64,000 bases of DNA, taken from Escherichia coli. Its GTDB lineage: Bacteria > Pseudomonadota > Gammaproteobacteria > Enterobacterales > Enterobacteriaceae. Below, piece by piece: positions 6,893 to 53,276 of this stretch. Numbering within the stretch: the first letter of the stretch is position 1; the number at the start of each line of letters is the position of its first letter. The notes below the pieces were generated by a model. That model was not told where the DNA came from and searched no databases. It worked only from the letters and a program-made list of their open reading frames with translations. Position numbers and translations under genes: made by a program. The stretch is taken from NCBI RefSeq assembly GCF_036507355.1, contig NZ_AP027877.1; one strand, given 5' to 3'.

Positions 6893-7759
6893 CTAAGCGA
6901 GGTTCTGGTTTTCAAATTGTTCCGGACTGAGGCCGCCACACCAACTGTGCCGCCGCCACCGATTGTAATCACATTCGATATAATTAAACACCGTTGCCCG
7001 CATTATTTCCCGGCTGATAAAGTGTTCTCCATGGATACATTCCACTTTCAGCGAATGAAAGAAGCTTTCCACGCAGGCATTATCGTAGCAGCAACCTTTT
7101 GCGCTCATACTTCCACGCAGATTATGCCGCTTCAGTTGCGCCTGATAATCTGCTGAACAGTACTGGCCTCCACGGTCCGTGTGAACGATAACGTTCCGGG
7201 GCCTCTTACGCCGCCACAGCGCCATCTGCAGGGCATCGCAGGCCAGTTGCGCCGTCATGCGTGGCGACATTGACCAGCCAATAACGGCACGTGACCACAG
7301 GTCAATGACCACTGCCAGATACAGCCAGCCTTCATCTGTACGTAAGTACGTGATGTCTCCTGCCCACTTCTGGTTCGGGCCACTGGCGTAAAAATCCTGC
7401 TCCAACAGATTTTCTGACACAGGCAGGCCGTGTGCGCGGTAGCTGACCGGGCTGAACTTCCGGGAGGCCTTTGCCCTCAGTCCCTGACGGCGCAGGCTTG
7501 CCGCCACGGTTTTTACGTTAAAGGGGTAACCCTGAGCACGCAGTTCATCCGTCAGGCGTGGGGCACCGTAACGCTGTTTTGACCGGGTAAAAGCCGCGAG
7601 GACAACGCTGTCGCAGTGTTGGCGGAACTGCTGACGCGTGCTTATCCTTGTCCGCCGCTGACACCACGTATACCAGCCGCTGCGGGCCACCCGGAGCACG
7701 CGGCACATTGCTTTGATGCTGAACTCAGCCTGATGTTTTTCAATAAAGACATACTTCAT
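6893..7759 (-). CDS. insF: IS3 transposase OrfB (DDE integrase domain)
   Basis: 288-aa [35 protein letters not shown]... with DDE-type catalytic region. Confidence 0.9.
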
Positions 7760-8064
7760 TTCAGGCGCTTCGCGAAGTATGTCGCGGCCTTTTGGAGGAT
7801 AGCCAGCTCTTCATCCCGTTCTGCCAGCTGGCGTTTGAGACGTGCAATCTCGGTAGACATCTCCAGTTCACGTTCAGAAGACGTCTGCTGATTTTGCTGT
7901 TTACTGCGCCAGTTGTAGAGCTGTGATTCATACAGGCTGAGTTCACGGGCTGCGGCAGTAACACCGATGCGTTCAGCAAGCTTCAGGGCTTCACTGCGAA
8001 ATTCAGGCGAATGCTGTTTACGGGGTTTTTTACTGGTTGATACTGTTTTTGTCATGTGAGTCAC
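7756..8064 (-). CDS. insE: IS3 transposase OrfA
   Basis: 102-aa HTH protein [34 protein letters not shown]... Confidence 0.9.
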
Positions 8065-8120: not shown

Positions 8121-9500
8121 CCGGACGCAACTGAACATCATCAGGACACGCAGCCGCTGGATGCTCAGTCACAGGTAAATTCTGTTGATGCGAAATATCA
8201 GGAACTGCGGGCAGAACTCCATGAAGCCCGGAAAAACATTCCATCAAAAAATCCTGTCGATGCCGATAAATTGCTTGCTGCATCACGTGGTGAATTTGTT
8301 GACGGAATTAGCGACCCGAACGATCCGAAATGGGTAAAGGGGATCCAGACTCGCGATTGTGTGTACCAGAACCAGCCAGAAACGGAAAAAACCAGCCCAG
8401 ATATGAATCAACCTGAGCCAGTAGTGCAACAGGAACCGGAAATAGCCTGCAATGCCTGCGGCCAGACTGGCGGGGATAACTGCCCTGACTGTGGTGCGGT
8501 GATGGGCGACGCAACATACCAGGAAACATTCGATGAAGAGAGTCAGGTTGAAGCTAAGGAAAATGATCCGGAGGAAATGGAAGGCGCTGAACATCCGCAC
8601 AATGAGAATGCTGGCAGCGATCCGCATCGCGATTGCAGTGATGAAACTGGCGAAGTCGCAGATCCCGTAATCGTAGAAGACATAGAGCCAGGTATTTATT
8701 ACGGAATTTCGAATGAGAATTACCACGCGGGTCCCGGTATCAGTAAGTCTCAGCTCGATGACATTGCTGATACTCCGGCACTATATTTGTGGCGTAAAAA
8801 TGCCCCCGTGGACACCACAAAGACAAAAACGCTCGATTTAGGAACTGCTTTCCACTGCCGGGTACTTGAACCGGAAGAATTCAGTAACCGCTTTATCGTA
8901 GCACCTGAATTTAACCGCCGTACAAACGCCGGAAAAGAAGAAGAGAAAGCGTTTCTGATGGAATGCGCAAGCACAGGAAAAACGGTTATCACTGCGGAAG
9001 AAGGCCGGAAAATTGAACTCATGTATCAAAGCGTTATGGCTTTGCCGCTGGGGCAATGGCTTGTTGAAAGCGCCGGACACGCTGAATCATCAATTTACTG
9101 GGAAGATCCTGAAACAGGAATTTTGTGTCGGTGCCGTCCGGACAAAATTATCCCTGAATTTCACTGGATCATGGACGTGAAAACTACGGCGGATATTCAA
9201 CGATTCAAAACCGCTTATTACGACTACCGCTATCACGTTCAGGATGCATTCTACAGTGACGGTTATGAAGCACAGTTTGGAGTGCAGCCAACTTTCGTTT
9301 TTCTGGTTGCCAGCACAACTATTGAATGCGGACGTTATCCGGTTGAAATTTTCATGATGGGCGAAGAAGCAAAACTGGCAGGTCAACAGGAATATCACCG
9401 CAATCTGCGAACCCTGTCTGACTGCCTGAATACCGATGAATGGCCAGCTATTAAGACATTATCACTGCCCCGCTGGGCTAAGGAATATGCAAATGACTAA
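8121..9500 (+). pseudogene. recE: exonuclease VIII (RecE) C-terminal fragment, N-terminally truncated at the IS3 junction
   Basis: frame open from the IS3 boundary; ends ...[13 protein letters not shown] and overlaps the recT start as in Rac; about 460 of ~866 codons remain. Confidence 0.8.
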
Positions 9501-10302
9501 GCAACCACCAATCGCAAAAGCCGATCTGCAAAAAACTCAGGGAAACCGTGCACCAGCAGCAGTTAAAAATAGCGACGTGATTAGTTTTATTAACCAGCCA
9601 TCAATGAAAGAGCAACTGGCAGCAGCTCTTCCACGCCATATGACGGCTGAACGTATGATCCGTATCGCCACCACAGAAATTCGTAAAGTTCCGGCGTTAG
9701 GAAACTGTGACACTATGAGTTTTGTCAGTGCGATCGTACAGTGTTCACAGCTCGGACTTGAGCCAGGTAGCGCCCTCGGTCATGCATATTTACTGCCTTT
9801 TGGTAATAAAAACGAAAAGAGCGGTAAAAAGAACGTTCAGCTAATCATTGGCTATCGCGGCATGATTGATCTGGCTCGCCGTTCTGGTCAAATCGCCAGC
9901 CTGTCAGCCCGTGTTGTCCGTGAAGGTGACGAGTTTAGCTTCGAATTTGGCCTTGATGAAAAGTTAATACACCGCCCGGGAGAAAACGAAGATGCCCCGG
10001 TTACCCACGTCTATGCTGTCGCAAGACTGAAAGACGGAGGTACTCAGTTTGAAGTTATGACGCGCAAACAGATTGAGCTGGTGCGCAGCCTGAGTAAAGC
10101 TGGTAATAACGGGCCGTGGGTAACTCACTGGGAAGAAATGGCAAAGAAAACGGCTATTCGTCGCCTGTTCAAATATCTGCCCGTATCAATTGAGATCCAG
10201 CGTGCAGTATCAATGGATGAAAAGGAACCACTGACAATCGATCCTGCAGATTCCTCTGTATTAACCGGGGAATACAGTGTAATCGATAATTCAGAGGAAT
10301 AA
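9493..10302 (+). CDS. recT: recombinase RecT (single-strand annealing protein)
   Basis: 269 aa starting [24 protein letters not shown]... Confidence 0.9.
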
Positions 10303-10431
10303 TTCAGCCTGGCGGTGTAATGCACCGCCAACTTGAAATATTTTTTATGAGAAAAATTATGAGATATGACAATGTTGGTGATGCTGCCAACTTACTGATT
10401 TAGTGTATGATGGTGTTTTTGAGGTGCTCCA

Positions 10432-10707
10432 GTGGCTTCTGTTTCTATCAGCTGTCCCTCCTGTTCAGCTACTGACGGGGTGGTGCGTAACGGCAAAAGC
10501 ACCGCCGGACATCAGCGCTATCTCTGCTCTCACTGCCGTAAAACATGGCAACTGCAGTTCACTTACACCGCTTCTCAACCCGGTACGCACCAGAAAATCA
10601 TTGATATGGCCATGAATGGCGTTGGATGCCGGGCAACAGCCCGCATTATGGGCATTGGCCTCAACACGATTTTACGTCACTTAAAAAACTCAGGCCGCAG
10701 TCGGTAA
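10432..10707 (+). CDS. insA: IS1 InsA
   Basis: 91-aa [23 protein letters not shown]... zinc-finger/HTH protein; A6C frameshift motif near 10683. Confidence 0.9.
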
Positions 10708-11129
10708 CCTCGCGCATACAGCCGGGCAGTGACGTCATCGTCTGCGCGGAAATGGACGAACAGTGGGGCTATGTCGGGGCTAAATCGCGCCAGCGCTGGC
10801 TGTTTTACGCGTATGACAGGCTCCGGAAGACGGTTGTTGCGCACGTATTCGGTGAACGCACGATGGCGACGCTGGGGCGTCTTATGAGCCTGCTGTCACC
10901 CTTTGACGTGGTGATATGGATGACGGATGGCTGGCCGCTGTATGAATCCCGCCTGAAGGGAAAGCTGCACGTAATCAGCAAGCGATATACGCAGCGAATT
11001 GAGCGGCATAACCTGAATCTGAGGCAGCACCTGGCACGGCTGGGACGGAAGTCGCTGTCGTTCTCAAAATCGGTGGAGCTGCATGACAAAGTCATCGGGC
11101 ATTATCTGAACATAAAACACTATCAATAA
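10626..11129 (+). CDS. insB: IS1 InsB (expressed as the InsAB' frameshift fusion)
   Basis: 167-aa ORF overlapping insA in the -1 frame. Confidence 0.85.
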
Positions 11130-11322
11130 GTTGGAGTCATTACCGACAATGTTAAACCATGTCCATTTTGTGGTTGTCCATCAGTAACGGTGAAAGCCAT
11201 TTCAGGATATTACCGAGCGAAGTGTAACGGATGCGAATCCCGAACCGGTTATGGTGGAAGTGAAAAAGAAGCACTCGAAAGATGGAATAAACGAACCACT
11301 GGAAATAATAATGGAGGTGTTC

Positions 11323-27469: not shown

Positions 27470-29083
27470 TCAATGCTTCACAATATACATAGTCCGACTG
27501 TACGCCACATCTTCAGGGTTATTAATGGGATAACCTTTCAGCCACGGTTTGATTAATCGTCCATTGGTATATTGATAAATTGGTGCAATCGGTGCTTGCT
27601 CCATGAGGATTTTTTCTGCCGCGTTGTAATCGGCATTACGCGCTTTAACGGTATTTTCCGTCGATGCCTGGGCCAGAACTTTGTCGTATGCCGGATTGTT
27701 AAAGCGTGAAATATTTCCTGAATGCGTTGACGTTAATAATGTCAGGAAAGTGGAGGGTTCATTATAATCCCCCACCCATGAGGCGCGGATAACATCAAAA
27801 TTGCCGGTGTTACGGCTATCGATATAGGTTTTCCATTCCTGATTTTGCAATTTAACATCTACGCCAAGGTTCTTTTTCCACATCGATGCTACAGCAATCG
27901 CAATTTTTTGATGGTTTTCTGAAGTGTTATACAAAAGCGTCAGCTTCAGCGGTTTTTGCGGACCATAACCAGCTGCGCTCAACAAAGTTTTTGCCTGCGC
28001 ATTCAGTTCTTCCTGACTCATTTGTTCAAACGGCGAAGGTTCCGGCGTAAATCCGGCGGTAACATCTGGTGTAAAATGCCACGCTGGCTTTTCGCCCGTC
28101 CCTAATACTTTTTCGGTCATCAGGCGGCGATCTATCGTCATACTTAATGCCAGACGAACGCGCTGATCTGCCGTCGGCCCTTTTTGCGTGTTAAACGCAT
28201 AATAATAGGTCCCGAGCTGCGGCGGCGTATAAACCTGCCCCGGAATATCCTTCAACAGCTTCTGATACATATTTTTCGGGAAGGATTCGGTGATATCAAT
28301 ATCCCCCGCGAGGTAACGCTTAGTGGCTGCGGATTCCTGATTAATTGGCAGGAAGGTCACTTTTTGCAGTACCGTTTTGGCGTTATCCCAATAATGGGTA
28401 TTCGGTACCACGACCAGTTTTTCATTGACTACGCGCTCTTTAAGAACATAAGCGCCATTGCCGATCAGATTTCCGGGTTTCGTCCACTCTTTACCGCTTT
28501 CTACGTTGGCTTTTTGCACCGGGAAGAAGGCAAAGTTAGCGGTTAAATTCACAAACCACGGCAACGGTTTATCAAGCTGAATTTTCAAAGTATGGGCATC
28601 AACTGCGGTGACGCCAAGCTGGTCAGGCGTAGCTTTACCATCAATAATCGCCTGTGCGTTGTTGATTCCCGCCAGCGCGGCAAACCATGCAAATGGCGAT
28701 AGCGTTTTCGGGTCCACCAGACGCTGCCAGCTGTAGACAAAATCTTGCGCCGTTACCGGTGTGCCATCCGCCCATTTTGCGTTATCGCGCAGGGTAAAAG
28801 TCCAGATACGGTTGTCATTACTTTTCCACTGAGTCGCAACGCCGGGGACAATCTCCCCTTTCTCGTTCTGATTCACCAGTCCTTCAAACAGATCGCGAAT
28901 GACCTGAATCTCTGGCAGGCCCACGGCTTTAGCGGGATCCAGCGACGCAGGCTCATCTTTAATGTGGCGCACCAGCTCCTGCTTCTCTGCCAGTACTGTG
29001 CCGCTCGGAACTTCTGCAGCATACGAAAGAGAAATGCTGCTGACCAACAGCGCACAACACGTGACTGAAACAGAGTGCTTCAT
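27470..29083 (-). CDS. mppA: periplasmic murein tripeptide-binding protein MppA
   Basis: 537 aa with signal peptide; OppA-like family 5 substrate-binding protein; tracked ORF extends to 29104. Confidence 0.9.
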   Translation of the reverse strand: MKHSVSVTCCALLVSSISLSYAAEVPSGTVLAEKQELVRHIKDEPASLDPAKAVGLPEIQVIRDLFEGLVNQNEKGEIVPGVATQWKSNDNRIWTFTLRDNAKWADGTPVTAQDFVYSWQRLVDPKTLSPFAWFAALAGINNAQAIIDGKATPDQLGVTAVDAHTLKIQLDKPLPWFVNLTANFAFFPVQKANVESGKEWTKPGNLIGNGAYVLKERVVNEKLVVVPNTHYWDNAKTVLQKVTFLPINQESAATKRYLAGDIDITESFPKNMYQKLLKDIPGQVYTPPQLGTYYYAFNTQKGPTADQRVRLALSMTIDRRLMTEKVLGTGEKPAWHFTPDVTAGFTPEPSPFEQMSQEELNAQAKTLLSAAGYGPQKPLKLTLLYNTSENHQKIAIAVASMWKKNLGVDVKLQNQEWKTYIDSRNTGNFDVIRASWVGDYNEPSTFLTLLTSTHSGNISRFNNPAYDKVLAQASTENTVKARNADYNAAEKILMEQAPIAPIYQYTNGRLIKPWLKGYPINNPEDVAYSRTMYIVKH

Positions 29084-29419
29084 AAGTTTCCCTCTAACCG
29101 ACATTAAAATTGATGCGTAATTATTTGTTTCGCCTTAAAGAAATGCAAACAACTTCCATCAAAAAAGTGACACAGGAAGCATAAAATGTTTTATGTATCA
29201 ATATATTAAATCAGATTTAGTGTAAATAATAGACGCCAAAATGCGGCAAAGCACATAGAACACCGAACACTACGTTCGGGCTTCGCACGTTCAAACCAGT
29301 TTTCGGTATCATAATCAGCATCTGTCGCCATTGTACGAAGAATAAAAAATAACCAAAACGTTGAAAGGAACTGAGAATACGTTAAGAGAAGAATTAAATT
29401 AATGTATCAGCAAGTAGTG

Positions 29420-30319
29420 CTAAACAGCACCTTTATACTTCAGCCTATCTATAAATAATGAGAATGCCGAGCCAGCATGTCGACGGTGTGGATAGTACAG
29501 GTGATAACCGGGTAAATCTGGTGTGAATTTATCCAAAACACGTATCAGTTTTTTTTCTTTAATAGCCCGCTCAACCTGATCATAAGGTAGATACGCCAAT
29601 CCATGCCCATCAATTGCAGCATCAATGATCAGGTCTATCGTATTCAGTAAAAGCTGACCTTCCATGCGAACACGAACTTCACGTCCACCGCGTATTAATC
29701 TCCAGCGATTTGCTGTACCCGATGTGGGAAGATACAAATTAACTGCCTGATGATCTATTAATTGTGACACTGACGTTGGAACACTTCGGCGGGAAAAATA
29801 ATCCGGTGAGCCGACAATAGCCATTGGTATATCTGGCCCGATTCGAATGGCGATCATATCTTTATCCATCTCCCCACCCAGACGGACGCCTGCATCAAAA
29901 CGCTCAGAAACGACATCAGTCAAACCATAATCAATGATAAGCTGAATATCAATTTCAGGGTGTGATTTCAGGAATGTGCGCATGGCTGGTAACAATATCG
30001 TTTTTGCTGCATGTTCTACAGTAGTAATACGTATTGTCCCGGATGGGCGGTTCTGCAGATCGCTCAGGGATGCCAGGGCAGAATCTATGTCATGCAGCAT
30101 AGGGCCAAGAACAGACAAAAGATGCTCGCCCGCTTCAGTGGGTACAACACTGCGCGTGGTTCGCGTCAGAAGCCGCAATCCCAATCGTTCTTCTATACGG
30201 CGCACTATCTGGCTTAAAGCTGACTGCGCCATGCTCAGGCGGGCTGCTGCTCGAGTGAAGCTACGCTCCTCTGCAACGACGACAAACGCCATCAGATCAG
30301 CGATCTCTTCACGCTTCAT
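29420..30319 (-). CDS. pgrR: LysR-family regulator PgrR (YcjZ)
   Basis: 299 aa with N-terminal LysR HTH (FVVVAEERSFTRAAARLSMAQSALSQ). Confidence 0.75.
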   Translation of the reverse strand: MKREEIADLMAFVVVAEERSFTRAAARLSMAQSALSQIVRRIEERLGLRLLTRTTRSVVPTEAGEHLLSVLGPMLHDIDSALASLSDLQNRPSGTIRITTVEHAAKTILLPAMRTFLKSHPEIDIQLIIDYGLTDVVSERFDAGVRLGGEMDKDMIAIRIGPDIPMAIVGSPDYFSRRSVPTSVSQLIDHQAVNLYLPTSGTANRWRLIRGGREVRVRMEGQLLLNTIDLIIDAAIDGHGLAYLPYDQVERAIKEKKLIRVLDKFTPDLPGYHLYYPHRRHAGSAFSLFIDRLKYKGAV

Positions 30320-30481
30320 TCAGTATCTCCATACAATCTATTAATCATTTAAATGATAGGTCTAATCATGATTTTGGGTCTAATCAACTTAATGATCAAT
30401 ATCTATAGTGATATCACCAACCGTTGAATCGCCACGGGTTTAACAGACACCTCAGAGTCATTTAAGATGGCTTAAAGAGAG

Positions 30482-30766
30482 GTGCCCATGAGCGGTAAGC
30501 GTTATCCCGAAGAGTTTAAAATTGAAGCAGTCAAACAGGTTGTTGATCGCGGTTATTCTGTTGCCAGCGTTGCAACACGTCTCGATATCACCACCCACAG
30601 CCTTTACGCCTGGATAAAGAAGTACGGTCCGGATTCTTCCGCTAATAAAGAACAGTCAGATGCTCAGGCCGAGATCCGCCGTCTCCAGAAAGAGCTGAAG
30701 CGGGTTACCGACGAACGGGACATATTAAAAAAAGCCGCGGCGTACTTCGCAAAGCTGTCCGACTGA
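30482..30766 (+). CDS. IS3-family transposase OrfA (HTH)
   Basis: 94 aa MPMSGKRYPEEFKIEAVKQVVDRGYSVASVATRL... with leucine-zipper-like C-terminus. Confidence 0.85.
   Translation: MPMSGKRYPEEFKIEAVKQVVDRGYSVASVATRLDITTHSLYAWIKKYGPDSSANKEQSDAQAEIRRLQKELKRVTDERDILKKAAAYFAKLSD
30727..30734 (+). promoter_or_regulatory. putative -1 programmed ribosomal frameshift site (A-run followed by G)
   Basis: ttaaaaaaagcc near the end of orfA, typical position of the IS3-family orfAB slippery site. Confidence 0.5.
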
Positions 30767-30822
30767 GGTACGCCTTTATCCGTGACAACACCTGTTGCTG
30801 GCCTGTTCGCCTGCTCTGTCGG

Positions 30823-31635
30823 GTGCTGGATGTTCATCCCAGTGGTTTTTACGCCTGGCTTCAGCAGCCGCATTCACAACGCCATCAGGCAGACCTGAGG
30901 CTGACAGGGCAGATTAAACAGTTCTGGCTGGAATCGGGATGCGTCTATGGTTATCGCAAAATCCATCTGGATCTGCGGGACAGCGGGCAACAGTGCGGAG
31001 TGAACAGAGTCTGGCGACTGATGAAACGTGTCGGGATAAAGGCTCAGGTCGGATACCGGAGCCCGCGGGCACGTAAAGGCGAGGCCAGTATCGTGTCGCC
31101 CAACAGGCTCCAGCGACAGTTCAATCCGGATGCTCCGGATAAGCGTTGGGTAACGGACATAACCTACATCAGGACCCACGAAGGCTGGCTGTATCTTGCC
31201 GTGGTTGTTGATCTGTTCTCACGCAAAATTATCGGCTGGTCCATGCAATCCCGGATGACAAAGGACATTGTCCTGAACGCACTGCTGATGGCTGTATGGC
31301 GCCGTAATCCCCAAAAACAGGTGCTGGTTCATTCGGATCAGGGCAGTCAGTACACAAGCCATGAGTGGCAGTCGTTCCTGAAATCACACGGCCTGGATGG
31401 CAGCATGAGCCGTCGCGGTAACTGCCATGATAATGCGGTTGCAGAAAGCTTTTTCCAGTTGTTGAAACGCGAACGGATAAAGAAAAAGATCTACGGAACG
31501 CGGGAAGAAGCCCGCAGCGATATTTTTGATTACATCGAAATGTTTTATAACAGTAAGCGTCGGCATGGTTCCAGCGATCAGATGTCACCGACAGAATATG
31601 AAAACCAGTATTATCAACGGCTCGGAAGTGTCTAG
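30823..31635 (+). CDS. IS3-family transposase OrfB (DDE integrase)
   Basis: 270 aa with DDE residues in WVTDITY...HSDQGSQYTS...CHDNAVAESFF context. Confidence 0.85.
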   Translation: MLDVHPSGFYAWLQQPHSQRHQADLRLTGQIKQFWLESGCVYGYRKIHLDLRDSGQQCGVNRVWRLMKRVGIKAQVGYRSPRARKGEASIVSPNRLQRQFNPDAPDKRWVTDITYIRTHEGWLYLAVVVDLFSRKIIGWSMQSRMTKDIVLNALLMAVWRRNPQKQVLVHSDQGSQYTSHEWQSFLKSHGLDGSMSRRGNCHDNAVAESFFQLLKRERIKKKIYGTREEARSDIFDYIEMFYNSKRRHGSSDQMSPTEYENQYYQRLGSV

Positions 31636-31653
31636 ATTATCCGTGGCGATTCA

Positions 31654-31864
31654 TACAATTCTTCGCCCTGCCTGGCTGACGGATGAAGATATTATTGATT
31701 ATGAGCTTACCTCACGCAATGAACCATTCAAAGGTACGATCGTATCACGTAAGAGTGTCGCAGCATTAATTACAGATATCATCGATAAACCTGAGAAACA
31801 CATTGGTGAGAATATAGGCATCAATCAACCCGGGACTGATGGCGATAAGCCATTCTTCATGTAA
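31654..31864 (+). pseudogene. ycjY: C-terminal remnant of an upstream gene truncated by the IS (ycjY-like)
   Basis: open frame continuing from the IS end to a stop at 31864 (…KPFFM); only ~100 bp lies between pgrR and the IS, so the 5' part is missing. Confidence 0.4.
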
Positions 31865-32154
31865 ATCAATTATATAGCCACCATCGTACTGTACTATGTG
31901 CAGTACGATTTATTAAACTTATTAAGGTGAACTGATCAATCAGATGCGATTAACATGTGTAGAACCAGTAAGAATAAAATACGCCATGTATATAACATTA
32001 CGACAATTCTAATATCTGCACATCAATGAAAATACAAACAACTTCCGGCAAAAAGGTGATACAAGATCGATGACATAGCGTTGAAGAAAAGGATTTGATA
32101 ATCCGCAAAATTTGCACAACACTGCCTGTAATACTTCCTGAACCAGAGACGATC

Positions 32155-32857
32155 ATGACCGTAACCCGCCCACGCGCCGAACGCGGCGCATTTCCGCCCG
32201 GAACAGAACATTACGGACGTTCATTATTGGGCGCGCCGTTAATCTGGTTTCCGGCCCCTGCAGCCAGTCGCGAAAGTGGTTTGATTCTGGCTGGCACTCA
32301 CGGTGATGAAAACTCTTCGGTCGTCACGCTCTCCTGTGCTCTGCGGACTTTGACACCTTCTTTGCGCCGCCATCATGTGGTGCTGTGTGTGAATCCTGAC
32401 GGCTGCTAGCTGGGGTTACGGGCCAATGCTAATGGTGTGGATTTAAACAGAAACTTTCCGGCGGCGAACTGGAAGGAAGGTGAAACGGTTTATCGCTGGA
32501 ACAGCGCCGCTGAAGAACGTGATGTCGTTTTACTGACAGGTGGCAAACCTGGCTCCGAACCTGAAACCCAGGCGCTGTGCCAGCTTATACACCGCATTCA
32601 ACCTGCCTGGGTGGTCTCATTCCACGATCCACTGGCCTGTATTGAAGATCCCAGACACAGCGAATTAGGCGAATGGCTGGCTCAGGCGTTTGAATTGCCT
32701 CTGGTAACCAGCGTCGGTTATGAAACGCCTGGCTCTTTCGGCAGTTGGTGTGCAGATCTGAACTTGCATTGCATCACCGCAGAGTTTCCGCCCATCTCCT
32801 CCGACGAAGCCAGCGAAAAATATCTCTTTGCGATGGCAAACTTGCTGCGCTGGCATC

Positions 32858-32883
<26 letters not shown>
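32155..32883 (+). pseudogene. mpaA: murein peptide amidase MpaA with in-frame amber codon
   Basis: zinc carboxypeptidase-like frame MTVTRPRAERGAFPPG... interrupted by TAG at 32407-32409 (…VNPDGC-stop-LGLRANANGVDLNRNFP) then continuing in frame. Confidence 0.75.
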
Positions 32884-33833
<950 letters not shown>

Positions 33834-33941
33834 TGTTGTCGCGGTGGTCTGCGGATTAAGCGCAAATAGCGTTTGCTGTGTTATTGACAGTTAGCATAAA
33901 CTAGGTGTGACGTTAACTATATGTAAACAGGAAAGATAATC

Positions 33942-34448
33942 ATGTCACAAACCGTTCATTTCCAGGGCAACCCGGTTACAGTCGCCAACTCCATCCCGCA
34001 GGCGGGTAGCAAAGCGCAGACTTTTACTCTCGTGGCAAAAGATCTGTCTGACGTCACCCTCGGTCAGTTTGCGGGTAAACGCAAAGTGCTGAACATTTTC
34101 CCGAGTATTGATACCGGTGTTTGCGCCGCATCAGTACGTAAGTTTAACCAACTGGCAACCGAGATCGACAACACCGTTGTGCTGTGTATTTCTGCCGATC
34201 TGCCGTTCGCCCAGTCTCGTTTCTGCGGCGCAGAAGGTCTGAACAACGTTATCACCCTCTCCACTTTCCGTAACGCTGAATTCCTGCAAGCCTACGGTGT
34301 GGCAATTGCTGATGGCCCACTGAAAGGTCTGGCAGCGCGTGCCGTTGTGGTTATTGATGAAAATGACAATGTGATTTTCAGTCAGCTGGTGGATGAAATC
34401 ACCACCGAGCCGGATTACGAAGCAGCTCTGGCTGTACTGAAAGCATAA
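33942..34448 (+). CDS. tpx: thiol peroxidase Tpx
   Basis: 168 aa atypical 2-Cys peroxiredoxin (PSIDTGVCA). Confidence 0.9.
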
Positions 34449-34453
34449 GTTAA

Positions 34454-34485
34454 TATGCCTGATGGTGTTGCACCATCAGGCATAT
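34454..34485. terminator. bidirectional hairpin between tpx and tyrR
   Basis: atatgcctgatggtg / caccatcaggcatat perfect inverted repeat. Confidence 0.6.
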
Positions 34486-34491
34486 TCGCGC

Positions 34492-36033
34492 TTACTCTTC
34501 GTTCTTCTTCTGACTCAGACCATATTCCCGCAACTTATTGGCAATCGCGGTATGTGAAACGCCGAGACGTTTTGCCAGTTTGCGCGTGCTGGGATAATTG
34601 CGATAAAGCTGGGTTAATACCGAGCGTTCAAAACGGCTGGTGATTTCGTCCAGCGAACCTTCCATCGCATCTTCGCCCACGGCTACCGTTGCGGCGTCAT
34701 AATCCGGCAACAAAATATCCTGTGGACACAGCTCATAACCGTCCAGTTGTGTCAGTGCGCGATAGATAGCGTTCTTTAACTGTCGCACATTTCCCGGCCA
34801 CGCATAACGCGTAAGTACAGTATTCAGGTCAGCGGCCAGTTTCGGACGCGGCACGCCCTGCTCGTCGGCAAAGCGGGCGACGAACAGCTCAGTTAACGGC
34901 ATGATGTCCTGCGGACAGTCACGTAGCGGCGGCAGATTGAGCGTCAACACGTTCAGACGATAATAGAGATCTTCACGGAACATGCCTTTTTGCACCAGTT
35001 CGACCAGATTCTTCTGCGTAGCGCAAATCACCCGCACATCGACATGCACCTCATGGTCTTCGCCAACCCGACGGAAAGTGCCATCATTAAGAAAACGCAG
35101 TAATTTCGCCTGCATCCGTGGTGACATCTCACCTATTTCATCCAACAGCACCGAACCACCGTTCGCCTGCTCAAAGAATCCTTTCTTCCCTTCCGGAGCA
35201 TGACCAAACAGCTCACTCTCGACCGCATCTTCCGGTATAGACGCACAGTTCAGCGCCAGGTAAGGTTTGCTCGCTCTTGGGCTTGCCTGATGGCAGGCGT
35301 AGGCAAAAAGATCTTTACCTGTACCTGTGTCACCCGTAATCAGCAGCGGCGCGCTTAGCATCGCCAGTTTCTGCGCCTGTTCGACAACGTGCTTCATTTT
35401 CGGGCTGACGGCGACAATTTGACTGAAGGCGCTGACGTCCTGGGCGGCGACATTTTGCAACTGGCGGCCCATACGAATCGTTGATCGCAACATCACCACC
35501 GCACCGGTCAGGACGTGTTGATCATTTTCATCCTGAAGATAAACAGGCGTAATCTCCATCAGGAAATTCTGCCCATTAATAACGACATGCTCGTTATGCG
35601 AATCTTGCGGTTCGCTTTCCAGCCAACGTAAAAAATTAAAGCCGTTAATCAATTGTGCGGCGGTATGGTTGCGCAGGCGATCCAATTTTTGCCCAAAAAG
35701 CTGACAGCTCGCCGGGTTCGCCATATCCACTTTGCTTTTCATATCGACAGAGAGCACAGGTTCAGGCAACGCCTCCAGTAACGCGCTCAACGCCAGATGC
35801 TCACGTTCGGAAGGCATCCACGGGACAGTACGCACATCGGTAACACCTGCAATACGGCGTATTTCGGCCATCAGACTGCTGAAACTCTCAAACTCCAGTT
35901 CAGCAAAATTGAGGTAGATTCGCCCAATGGGGTCAATCTCAATACCGCGTAAATCAATGCCTCTTAGCACGAGTAGATCGAGTAATTCGCGGGTCAGACC
36001 GAGTCGGTCTTCACAAAAGACTTCCAGACGCAT
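34492..36033 (-). CDS. tyrR: transcriptional regulator TyrR
   Basis: 513 aa: ACT/PAS N-domain, sigma54-interaction-type AAA+ core (GDTGTGKD), C-terminal HTH. Confidence 0.9.
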   Translation of the reverse strand: MRLEVFCEDRLGLTRELLDLLVLRGIDLRGIEIDPIGRIYLNFAELEFESFSSLMAEIRRIAGVTDVRTVPWMPSEREHLALSALLEALPEPVLSVDMKSKVDMANPASCQLFGQKLDRLRNHTAAQLINGFNFLRWLESEPQDSHNEHVVINGQNFLMEITPVYLQDENDQHVLTGAVVMLRSTIRMGRQLQNVAAQDVSAFSQIVAVSPKMKHVVEQAQKLAMLSAPLLITGDTGTGKDLFAYACHQASPRASKPYLALNCASIPEDAVESELFGHAPEGKKGFFEQANGGSVLLDEIGEMSPRMQAKLLRFLNDGTFRRVGEDHEVHVDVRVICATQKNLVELVQKGMFREDLYYRLNVLTLNLPPLRDCPQDIMPLTELFVARFADEQGVPRPKLAADLNTVLTRYAWPGNVRQLKNAIYRALTQLDGYELCPQDILLPDYDAATVAVGEDAMEGSLDEITSRFERSVLTQLYRNYPSTRKLAKRLGVSHTAIANKLREYGLSQKKNEE

Positions 36034-49303: not shown

Positions 49304-50596
49304 TTAGTGCTGTTCGATCAGTTCATCCAGCTTTTTCTGGCTCGCTTGTAGCGTGGTAGAGAGATCGGCTTTACCCACAGTGACGTTATGCACCATGGAG
49401 CTCACCACCCCAGAACCCGTCACATCGCCCATGCGGGTAAAGTTTTTATCCCCTACTGCGCCAAAGACCTGAATATTCGGCAGTTCACCGATTAACTGAT
49501 TTGGCAGTTCACCCAGCGCCTTAATAACGTCGTTGTCTTTCCAGGTGGCAGTAGTGACAACCGCTTTGTTCACCGGCAGCGCCGCGCCTGGCGACATCAT
49601 CACCCAGTCGGCAATGTTGTCTGCCTGCTCCATAAAGGTGACAAATTTTTCTGCTGCTTCCGTTTCTTCGGTCTTTTGCCCGGCGGTAATGGTCAGCGAG
49701 GTCAACATGCCGTAGACTGCAGCGTTTTTCTCCGTTGGCACGACGAAACCGACGTTTTTCGGGTCGCCTTCTTTAATCACAGCCGGAAGGATATAGGTGG
49801 AGTAAATCGCCATCGGCGCGGTGCCGTTCATAAAGGCGTCTTTCACTTCCATGATGTCGTTAGAACCCGGCATGGTGTTGGCAGCAAGGTCGCGGTAATA
49901 GGTCAGCGCCTGCATCATCTCTGGTGTATCAAGAGTGATTTTGCCTTCGGCGTTAAAGACGTTGGCCTGGTTGGATAACGCAAACTGGGAGAAGGATTGT
50001 TCCGTCAGCACGCTTTCTGCCGTAGGCAGCGCAATACCGTATTTTTTATTCGCCGGGTCATTCAGTTTCTGTGCAACGTCCAGCAGCTGTTGCCAGTTTT
50101 TCGGCTCCTCCAGCCCCGCTTTTGCCAGCACATCTTTGCGATACCAGATGCCGCCAATCCAGGCGCTGACAGGTACACCGGTCCATGCGCTACCATCTTC
50201 GGTACGCACAATACGCAGTACGCCATCGTAAAACGCGCCTTCACCAACGTTGCTGATGACCGTGGCAACCGCTTTGCGATCGATAAGCTGCTCTTTATCC
50301 ATAACTTTGGCGTAGTCATGGCTGGTTTCGATCACTTCCGGCAGCGAGCCGCTACGTGAAAGGGTGATGACTTTAGTGTTATAAGCGTCTTCTTCCACGG
50401 GCACTTGTTTAACGGTGATACCTGGGTTTTCTTTTTCAAAACGGGCAATCAATTTGCTGATAACTGCCTGACGCTCCTGCTCCACCGAAGAATGCATAAA
50501 TTCGATGGATACATGGGTTTTATTTTCTTCTTTACAGCCTGAAATCAGGGCGCAGGAAACCAGTGCTGATAACAGCACGATTTTTGATTTAATCAT
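49304..50596 (-). CDS. ycjN: periplasmic sugar-binding protein YcjN
   Basis: 430 aa with lipoprotein-type signal (LISGC). Confidence 0.8.
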   Translation of the reverse strand: MIKSKIVLLSALVSCALISGCKEENKTHVSIEFMHSSVEQERQAVISKLIARFEKENPGITVKQVPVEEDAYNTKVITLSRSGSLPEVIETSHDYAKVMDKEQLIDRKAVATVISNVGEGAFYDGVLRIVRTEDGSAWTGVPVSAWIGGIWYRKDVLAKAGLEEPKNWQQLLDVAQKLNDPANKKYGIALPTAESVLTEQSFSQFALSNQANVFNAEGKITLDTPEMMQALTYYRDLAANTMPGSNDIMEVKDAFMNGTAPMAIYSTYILPAVIKEGDPKNVGFVVPTEKNAAVYGMLTSLTITAGQKTEETEAAEKFVTFMEQADNIADWVMMSPGAALPVNKAVVTTATWKDNDVIKALGELPNQLIGELPNIQVFGAVGDKNFTRMGDVTGSGVVSSMVHNVTVGKADLSTTLQASQKKLDELIEQH

Positions 50597-50972
50597 GAGA
50601 TGTTCCTTTTTATTTAATCCACATAACCTGCCAGGGGCGCAGCGTTATTTCATTACCCAATATATCAACTTCACTAATCAGATCCCGACCATGCAGATCA
50701 GTAATATTTACATGCTGAATATTTTCACTGACATTAAACAATCCAGTCAGACAATTACCATCAGCGTTACTTCTTTGAATACGCATTACGGATGAATTAA
50801 CCGTATCAATGGTAAAATTATTATCCGGATGAAACTCGTTATGGCTGCGACGAAGTGTAATTAAACGCGACAACTCATGATATACCGCATGCCTTAATGT
50901 AGCTTCATCGTTCAGTTGGTGATGCTGCCAACTTACTGATTTAGTGTATGATGGTGTTTTTGAGGTGCTCCA

Positions 50973-51248
50973 GTGGCTTCTGTTTCTATCAGCTGTCCCT
51001 CCTGTTCAGCTACTGACGGGGTGGTGCGTAACGGCAAAAGCACCGCCGGACATCAGCGCTATCTCTGCTCTCACTGCCGTAAAACATGGCAACTGCAGTT
51101 CACTTACACCGCTTCTCAACCCGGTACGCACCAGAAAATCATTGATATGGCCATGAATGGCGTTGGATGCCGGGCAACAGCCCGCATTATGGGCATTGGC
51201 CTCAACACGATTTTACGTCACTTAAAAAACTCAGGCCGCAGTCGGTAA
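50973..51248 (+). CDS. insA: IS1 InsA
   Basis: identical to the insA at 10432. Confidence 0.9.
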
Positions 51249-51670
51249 CCTCGCGCATACAGCCGGGCAGTGACGTCATCGTCTGCGCGGAAATGGACGA
51301 ACAGTGGGGCTATGTCGGGGCTAAATCGCGCCAGCGCTGGCTGTTTTACGCGTATGACAGGCTCCGGAAGACGGTTGTTGCGCACGTATTCGGTGAACGC
51401 ACGATGGCGACGCTGGGGCGTCTTATGAGCCTGCTGTCACCCTTTGACGTGGTGATATGGATGACGGATGGCTGGCCGCTGTATGAATCCCGCCTGAAGG
51501 GAAAGCTGCACGTAATCAGCAAGCGATATACGCAGCGAATTGAGCGGCATAACCTGAATCTGAGGCAGCACCTGGCACGGCTGGGACGGAAGTCGCTGTC
51601 GTTCTCAAAATCGGTGGAGCTGCATGACAAAGTCATCGGGCATTATCTGAACATAAAACACTATCAATAA
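51167..51670 (+). CDS. insB: IS1 InsB
   Basis: identical to the insB at 10626. Confidence 0.85.
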
Positions 51671-53276
51671 GTTGGAGTCATTACCCGTTCAGTTCTCGTG
51701 TTATCTCTTCACTGTGATATTTTTTACGGTTAATCGCACGGTTATATCCGAGTTTTTCGACACCTGCGTAATCATTACGCGAGCCCAGAATACTTTGAAT
51801 ATATATCGCTGGCACACCGGGGAAACTTAACAAAATCGCATGGGCAAGGATAAACCTGGCGCAACGTTCTTCATCGCTACTCTCGCGGCGGCTTAACGCA
51901 TCCATATAGGTGACATTTATTTCATAGGGACTGCGCGTACCGTCGGGATTATTTTTCCAGTTTACTAATGCACCTTCCTGCTGTAATGCCTCGATCAGCG
52001 CTAATATTTCGCTTTCTGGTAACAAGCCCCGCAGTGGGTTCAGCCCGATGCCATCGTGAGAGGCGAGGAAGTTAAACCAGGTCGTTTTACCGGAGGGCAA
52101 GCTCAGACTTTGCGCCCACTGGCACAGCGCCTCGACGTTCTGTTTTTGCACCGCATGTAACACCAGCGGCGGCAGCGAGAACTGGTACACCATATGCGCT
52201 TCGTCATCGCCTTCGCCAAAGTAAGCAATGTTATCTTTATGCGGAACATTCGTCTCAGTAATAATCACCGTACCTGGCGCGATGTCATCAATAATCGACC
52301 GTAACAGTTTGATAATCAGATGTGTTTTTTCCAGATGGATGCAGCTTGTTCCCGGCTCTTTCCACATAAAGCCAACGGCATCCAGACGGACATATTCTGC
52401 GCCCTTTTCCAGGTAGCACAGCAATACATCCACCATCGCCAGCAACACTTCAGGGCTACGGTAATTGAGGTCAATTTGATCGTCGCTAAAGGTGGTCCAT
52501 AAATGGCGCGTGGAATTATCATCCATTTGAAACGGCGTTAATAGCGGTAACGCACGCGGACGGGTGACGGCACTGAGATCGGTTTTCGGATCAACCGCAA
52601 TAAAGAAATCTTTAAAACCCGGAAGCTGTTGCAAATAGTTTTTAAACCATTCACTTTTTGCCGACATATGGTTGCAGACAAAATCAAACATTAAATGACT
52701 GCATTCACCGAGCTGCTGAATATCCTGCCACTCCCCCGCTTCACTGGCGACCTGATGATAATCAATTACCGAAAATCCATCATCAGATGACCATGGATAA
52801 AAAGGTAATAAATGAACATGTGAAAAAATGCTTTGCAGCCATTGGTGGTAAAACTGATTAAATGTGGGTAGTGGTTTTAAATCATTACTGTGAAATTGAT
52901 CGGCATAGGTAATTAACACGACGTCACTTTCATCCCAGTGTTTTTTACGTCGCTGTGTAATTAATCGTTTCGCACTCTCAAGACGCGTTACAAGTTTCTG
53001 TAAATGAGTTGCGGTAAATGTTCCACCGTAGATTTCGCCCAGGTAATCCGTAATTTTCTGTTTCATGTTGCCTTTCCGTGGTAGCGGTCCCATGAAACGA
53101 GAGACTACTCCGCAGAAAATAAACTGTCAATTGAGCACAAGGGTTTTAGTCACGCAGGAAATCATTTTTTACCAGGGAAAAAGCGTATTTGTGAGCTGAC
53201 GCAAATAATCTATAGGGATGTAAATAAGGTGTGACAGAAAAAAACGGCGCATAAGCGCCGCTCATGGTGAATTCTT

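Follow-up and report, generated by a model that had tools for sequence, protein, structure and literature searches.

An ISEhe3-like insertion sequence at the joint of a probable 2.3-kb deletion between pgrR and mpaA in an Escherichia coli genome

In the Escherichia coli genome studied here, the interval between pgrR and mpaA holds an insertion sequence (IS) followed by the 3' end of a gene. We analysed this locus in a stretch of 64,000 nucleotides of contig NZ_AP027877.1 (hereafter the window, to which all coordinates refer). The arrangement raises a simple question: did an IS insert into a locus that looked much as it does now, or does it mark the place where DNA has been lost? We examine in turn the element itself, the absence of a target duplication around it, the sequence found between its flanks in other E. 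coli, the ways in which the present structure could have arisen, and what became of the neighbouring genes and promoters.

Positions 30425-31653 are occupied by a complete IS3-family element of 1,229 bp, ISEhe3-like and on the + strand. It is bounded by imperfect terminal inverted repeats of 38 nt (30425-30462, + strand, beginning TGAATCGCCACGG; 31616-31653, + strand, ending CCGTGGCGATTCA) that are 74% complementary and have the form TGAATCG...CGATTCA, i.e. TG...CA ends. orfA (30488-30766, +) encodes 92 aa with an HTH_Tnp_1 domain (4e-20), and the orfB part of OrfAB (30733-31635, +), open throughout, carries an rve DDE integrase core (2e-33). A 382-aa OrfAB is readable via a -1 frameshift at the slippery A AAA AAA run at 30727-30733, and the same CDS is annotated with a “programmed frameshift” in E. 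coli records. The transposase scores 337.8 bits on the NCBIfam IS3-family model NF033516, for a cutoff of 160. Overlapping orfA and orfB with a -1 frameshift, TG...CA repeats and a length within the range of about 1.2-1.55 kb are all as described for the IS3 family, to which a preliminary description of this DNA had rightly assigned the element. The 64-kb window holds one copy of it.

In ISfinder, isoforms of an element share a nucleotide identity of about 95% or more. The window IS is 89.4% identical to the copy of the Shigella phage SfIV, which is annotated as ISEhe3 orfA/orfB (PMC3851460); the ISfinder reference for ISEhe3 is AF327445, from plasmid pPATH of Pantoea agglomerans. ISEhe3 belongs to the IS51 group of the IS3 family, is listed with direct repeats of 3-4 bp, and comes from P. 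agglomerans (PMC10425158). The window element resembles it by its orfA/orfB organization with a -1 frameshift, its TG...CA ends and its length of about 1.2 kb, and also by the 3-bp duplication that other copies of the element make; it differs from ISEhe3 as annotated in SfIV by its identity of only 89.4%. It may thus stand under another ISfinder name than ISEhe3, and we refer to it as ISEhe3-like.

The element is widespread. Its left end (exact match over 33 nt) was found in 69 contigs from Pantoea, Erwinia, Franconibacter, Kosakonia, Enterobacter, Klebsiella, Salmonella and other genera, full copies are present in 178 of 5,426 complete E. coli genomes, and 702 plasmid records contain 80% of the IS or more. 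Compared with the full copies of other E. coli the window copy is 99.9% identical (1 mismatch), and a Pantoea assembly contains a collapsed contig of 1,229 bp, the same length as the window IS (L054). With its OrfAB open, near-identical copies elsewhere and a wide distribution, the element looks active as judged from sequence.

We then come to the target site. The window IS is flanked as ...ACCGT|IS|TACAATT: neither the adjoining triplets (CGT and TAC) nor the adjoining tetranucleotides (CCGT and TACA) are repeated, in agreement with the preliminary description, which had reported no target duplication. Other copies of the same element do duplicate 3 bp. The copy of E. coli Res13-Sevr-PER07-33, which differs from that of the window by 1 mismatch in 1,229 and lies at the 3' end of ycjY, is bordered by a perfect GGA duplication. 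In a small survey of 22 complete copies a perfect 3-bp duplication borders 8 of them, for a chance expectation of 1/64; this comprises five of the nine E. coli chromosomal copies and three of the 13 copies from other Enterobacterales (the loci used for the observations on duplication and orientation are L002 3406-4634, L092 2559-5010, L028-L085 and L107-L114). A 4-bp duplication, as in the IS407 group, was considered and ruled out, as the duplicating copies show 3 bp and not 4. Since the same element duplicates 3 bp elsewhere, the absence of a duplication at the window copy is real and meaningful. A duplication is the one feature of the IS3 family that this copy lacks, which would reflect a deletion and not its family membership.

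Copies without a 3-bp duplication are nevertheless common in this survey (14 of 22), and the window case is therefore unremarkable in that respect. Their frequency is consistent with common rearrangement after insertion. Several of these duplication-free copies adjoin truncated genes, e.g. rspA in strain OW1E2 (L113).

To the left of the IS, pgrR (ycjZ; 29420-30319, - strand) encodes an intact LysR-type regulator of 299 aa, as judged from the ORF and from the annotation of matching E. coli records, and the exact PgrR protein is widespread in E. coli, MppA being common as well. The pgrR ATG is separated from the IS left end by 105 bp (30320-30424), a measured value close to the 100 bp given earlier. 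To the right, the sequence resumes at 31654 within the 3' part of an NAD(P)H-binding short-chain dehydrogenase/reductase (SDR) gene. In IS-free E. coli both flanks are collinear and in the same orientation, and they are separated by 2,330 bp in L011, by 2,243 bp in L003 and by about 1,450 bp in LF82. In the closest relatives the pgrR-mpaA interval contains three genes: ycjY (306 aa), whose product is an alpha/beta hydrolase, a second alpha/beta hydrolase gene (about 310 aa, hereafter hydrolase 2) and the SDR gene (212 aa). This three-gene arrangement is present in all of the nearest loci (L011, L007, L013, L005, L002 and L003), whose flanks are 99.0-99.8% identical to those of the window.

Relative to L011 the 2,330 bp absent from the window comprise the 32 bp of the pgrR-ycjY spacer that adjoin ycjY (the spacer measures 137 bp, of which 105 bp are thus retained; the reference alignment ends at 30424/30425), both hydrolase genes and, out of the 639 nt of the SDR gene, 428 nt. 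A search for the missing segment elsewhere in the 64-kb window found none of it. Both junctions can be placed only to within one base, as the terminal bases of the IS (T and A) happen to equal those of the reference. Flanks that are collinear in the window and apart in IS-free relatives, together with the lack of a duplication around the IS, are what an IS-linked deletion leaves. The alignment with IS-free genomes, proposed earlier as a check, thus supports a deletion over a simple insertion. The preliminary description had further considered that “the gene” between pgrR and mpaA had lost its 5' part. That is correct for the SDR gene; the interval held three genes, however, and two of them are lost whole.

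The left flank (27470-30424) is 99.7-99.8% identical to relatives that match the right flank (31654-35000) at only 98.7-99.2%. This gap suggests that a boundary of recombination lies at the locus or close to it.

The element with its boundaries, the absent duplication, the collinearity of the flanks and the amount of DNA missing relative to the nearest relatives are directly observed; from them we infer an order of events and a molecular route. The reading that we retain, with a probability of roughly 0.85, is an IS-linked deletion in at least two steps, i.e. the insertion of the ISEhe3-like element followed by the loss of the adjoining 2,330 bp. The insertion would have taken place where one or the other junction now lies, in the pgrR-ycjY spacer or at about codon 142 of the SDR gene. 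Everything from that IS end to the other junction would then have been lost while the IS stayed, by an adjacent deletion made by the transposase, or by recombination between the first copy and a second, same-orientation copy that had landed nearby. Either route would leave a single IS whose flanks derive from two different target sites, and so no duplication. Adjacent deletion and two-copy recombination are thus indistinguishable from the sequence, which does not tell either at which site the original insertion took place. A parallel comes from the long-term evolution lines of E. coli, in which 14 movements of IS150, another IS3-family element, were linked to deletions (Ngan et al. 2024, PMC11708052). 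As in those cases, the window has an IS3-family element at the joint, in single copy and with no duplication, and flanks collinear with the ancestral arrangement. It differs from them by the element (ISEhe3-like) and by the locus, and also in that the prior insertion, seen there in the time series, would here have to be assumed. The predicted intermediate (the IS with its duplication at either junction and the genes present) would have ...GGAATATAC next to the IS left end if the insertion was at the SDR site, or CGTTAAAACG next to the IS right end if it was at the spacer site. It was found neither in 5,426 complete RefSeq E. coli genomes nor in JGI metagenome contigs. The same collections gave no contiguous match to either junction (120-bp probes for the genomes).

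Other histories have to be weighed against this one. The IS could have inserted first inside the interval, for instance in ycjY as in Res13, and DNA could have been lost on both sides by two separate adjacent deletions. The same element does lie inside the interval, in the same orientation, at the 3' end of ycjY in Res13 (with its duplication) and at the start of ycjY in strain MB51, and stepwise growth of adjacent deletions was frequent in the long-term evolution lines (PMC11708052). But the flanks in Res13 and MB51 differ from those of the window by 0.8-1.6%, which makes them separate lineages with independent insertions, so that the interval has been struck three times by the ISEhe3-like element (in the window, in MB51 and in Res13), each time with the same orientation. 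As this history also requires one event more than the best explanation, we regard it as unlikely. Slightly less likely still is a one-step event in which a DNA break captured the IS during the 2.3-kb deletion, a hypothesis set out by Ngan et al. 2024 (PMC11708052). A duplication would then never have been made, in accordance with its absence and with the intermediate not having been found; yet in that same study the two-step route explains all of the IS3-family (IS150) cases, and nothing in the window sequence demands the extra hypothesis.

An artefact of assembly must also be considered. Two direct IS copies around an intact segment could have been collapsed by the assembler; IS copies are classic collapse points, and it is precisely at the window IS that short-read assemblies from this lineage are interrupted. 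Contigs from two other samples, L018 (GCA_905398585.1) and L019 (SRR31122001), start inside the IS right end and are 100% identical to the window over more than 3.3 kb. Because short-read assemblers break at repeats, contigs that start in the IS are the expected look of the same junction. Exact matches to fragments of MpaA likewise led to three short-read assemblies that have the right junction of the window. This junction is thus reproduced in independent samples, and a collapse would moreover need 2.3 kb of unique sequence to be dropped, which makes it very improbable. This support from other assemblies covers the right junction, the left one being read in the window assembly. Finally, the interval varies in E. 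coli, with B2-type strains that are without hydrolase 2 and a K-12 that has a deletion of its own, and one may ask whether the missing genes were ever present in this lineage, the IS having simply inserted. Such an insertion predicts the 3-bp duplication that the window copy does not have. In addition, no IS-free genome with a spacer-to-SDR joint exists among the 5,426 complete RefSeq E. coli genomes, and the nearest relatives all have the full gene set; this last history is scarcely credible.

What remains of the SDR gene (31654-31864, +) is its last 69-70 codons and the stop. It corresponds to residues 143-212 of 212, with 97% identity (tblastn), and matches Pfam NAD_binding_10 at profile positions 139-184 of 184 (E 2.5e-11). 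The open frame that had been seen to leave the IS right end and to stop at 31864 is the frame of this remnant; it extends from 31526 to 31864, i.e. 129 nt back into the IS. A transposase-SDR fusion protein is ruled out, as the remnant is not in the frame of orfB. The fusion ORFs leaving the IS have no exact match in the protein collection. The spacer between the SDR gene and mpaA (31865-32154, +; 290 bp) is fully kept, the right-flank alignment being continuous from 31653/31654. Directly 3' of the SDR stop it contains a terminator-like hairpin (31883-31909, +) with a 12-bp stem and a U-rich tail, whose folding energy is -16.2 kcal/mol (z -4.5; 0 of 200 shuffled sequences fold as well). A simple terminator scan did not flag this hairpin.

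Further downstream, mpaA (32155-32883, +), the gene of the murein tripeptide amidase, is a pseudogene: its Gln85 codon CAG is TAG at 32407-32409. Six reference loci have CAG at codon 85 and an open frame of 242 aa, whereas TAG is found in the window and in L018. The exact C-terminal fragment of MpaA is recorded for the GenBank E. coli protein BED22585.1. The same C-to-T change also occurs in unrelated K-12-like backgrounds (L015 and L017) and in L016. From its distribution, this TAG allele would be one of three things: recurrent, moved by recombination, or a laboratory amber allele.

Did the deletion deprive mpaA of its promoter, as the preliminary description had proposed for the downstream operon? 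ycjY-ymjDC-mpaA is listed as a PgrR-regulated operon, with a PgrR SELEX site in the ycjY/ycjZ spacer (Shimada and colleagues, PMC5934670), and promoters have been predicted for both divergent genes, ATGATA-19-TCTAAT for ycjY and TAGACC-18-TATCAT for pgrR (Shimada and colleagues, PMC3946193). Both lie in the 105 bp retained in the window: the hexamers ATGATA/TCTAAT of the predicted ycjY(-ymjDC) promoter at about 30353-30384 on the + strand, and the predicted pgrR promoter (TAGACC-18-TATCAT) at 30382-30353 on the - strand. The window is identical to K-12 across these predicted divergent promoters. Since the predicted ycjY promoter and the whole 290-bp mpaA spacer are kept, no promoter region appears to have been removed, and the proposal is not borne out. 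What has changed is the path from the ycjY promoter to mpaA, which now includes 1.2 kb of IS, with the older terminator-like hairpin retained. Transcripts from the ycjY promoter would enter the IS in the sense direction and then meet the hairpin at 31883-31909.

Consensus scans for promoters and terminators gave counts no higher than in shuffled sequence, and for this reason carry no weight alone. They called no outward hybrid promoter at the IS right end, despite the TACAAT hexamer that directly adjoins it. In any case the question of the mpaA promoter is largely moot, mpaA having a nonsense codon.

The pgrR-mpaA interval also decays elsewhere in E. coli. K-12 keeps ycjY and only scraps of hydrolase 2 and of the SDR gene, ymjD and ymjC. 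The same interval has thus decayed independently in both genomes, with hydrolase 2 and the SDR gene reduced to fragments in K-12. The outcomes are nevertheless different: K-12 has no IS there and retains ycjY together with a 5' remnant of the SDR gene (ymjC), while the window has lost ycjY and keeps only the 3' end of the SDR gene. K-12 is also without the sequence corresponding to window positions 31654-32024, i.e. the SDR 3' end and the hairpin. We suggest that this loss of the hairpin may be the reason why mpaA appears in the ycjY operon of that strain. In an O157-like genome hydrolase 2 and the SDR gene are both frameshifted, and strains of the LF82 type are without hydrolase 2. As the interval decays in K-12, in the O157-like genome and in B2-type strains as well, the genes lost from the window appear dispensable.

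The IS copy of MB51 at the ycjY start (L092 2872-4094) is interrupted in its turn by an IS30 that is bordered by a 2-bp duplication (GC), and the outer IS shows no clean 3-bp duplication. The window carries further insertion sequences away from the locus. An IS3 copy (orfA/orfB; 6893-8064, -) and an IS1 copy (about 10374-11141) bracket recE and recT of the Rac prophage (8271-10302), recE being apparently truncated. A second IS1 (about 50915-51682) lies between the ORFs 49304-50596 and 51681-53093, which by gene order alone would be ycjN and ycjM. Over their first 300 nt the two IS1 copies have the same sequence. The IS1, IS3 and pseudogene content might suggest a Shigella origin; the named exact matches are, however, a mixture of partial proteins of E. 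coli and S. sonnei and do not establish it.

The window genome is IS-active and is shedding dispensable genes, and the IS-linked deletion is an ordinary, known kind of event. Two more far-reaching possibilities seem doubtful to us. The ISEhe3-like element, with its 14 duplication-free copies among 22 and its three hits in the same interval, may be unusually prone to duplication-free deletions or rearrangements; if so, it would contribute notably to the loss of genes in Enterobacterales. Or the PgrR-controlled ycjY promoter may read into the transposase gene, which, if true, would tie transposase expression to a peptidoglycan-recycling signal. Beyond the correct annotation of the window genome the finding has little importance, except that the two junctions, which are absent from the 5,426 complete E. 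coli genomes, could serve as markers of the lineage. For the organism itself, this lineage has lost ycjY, its paralogous hydrolase and the SDR gene, and with mpaA broken the MppA-MpaA-YcjG route of murein tripeptide breakdown is interrupted at the MpaA step.
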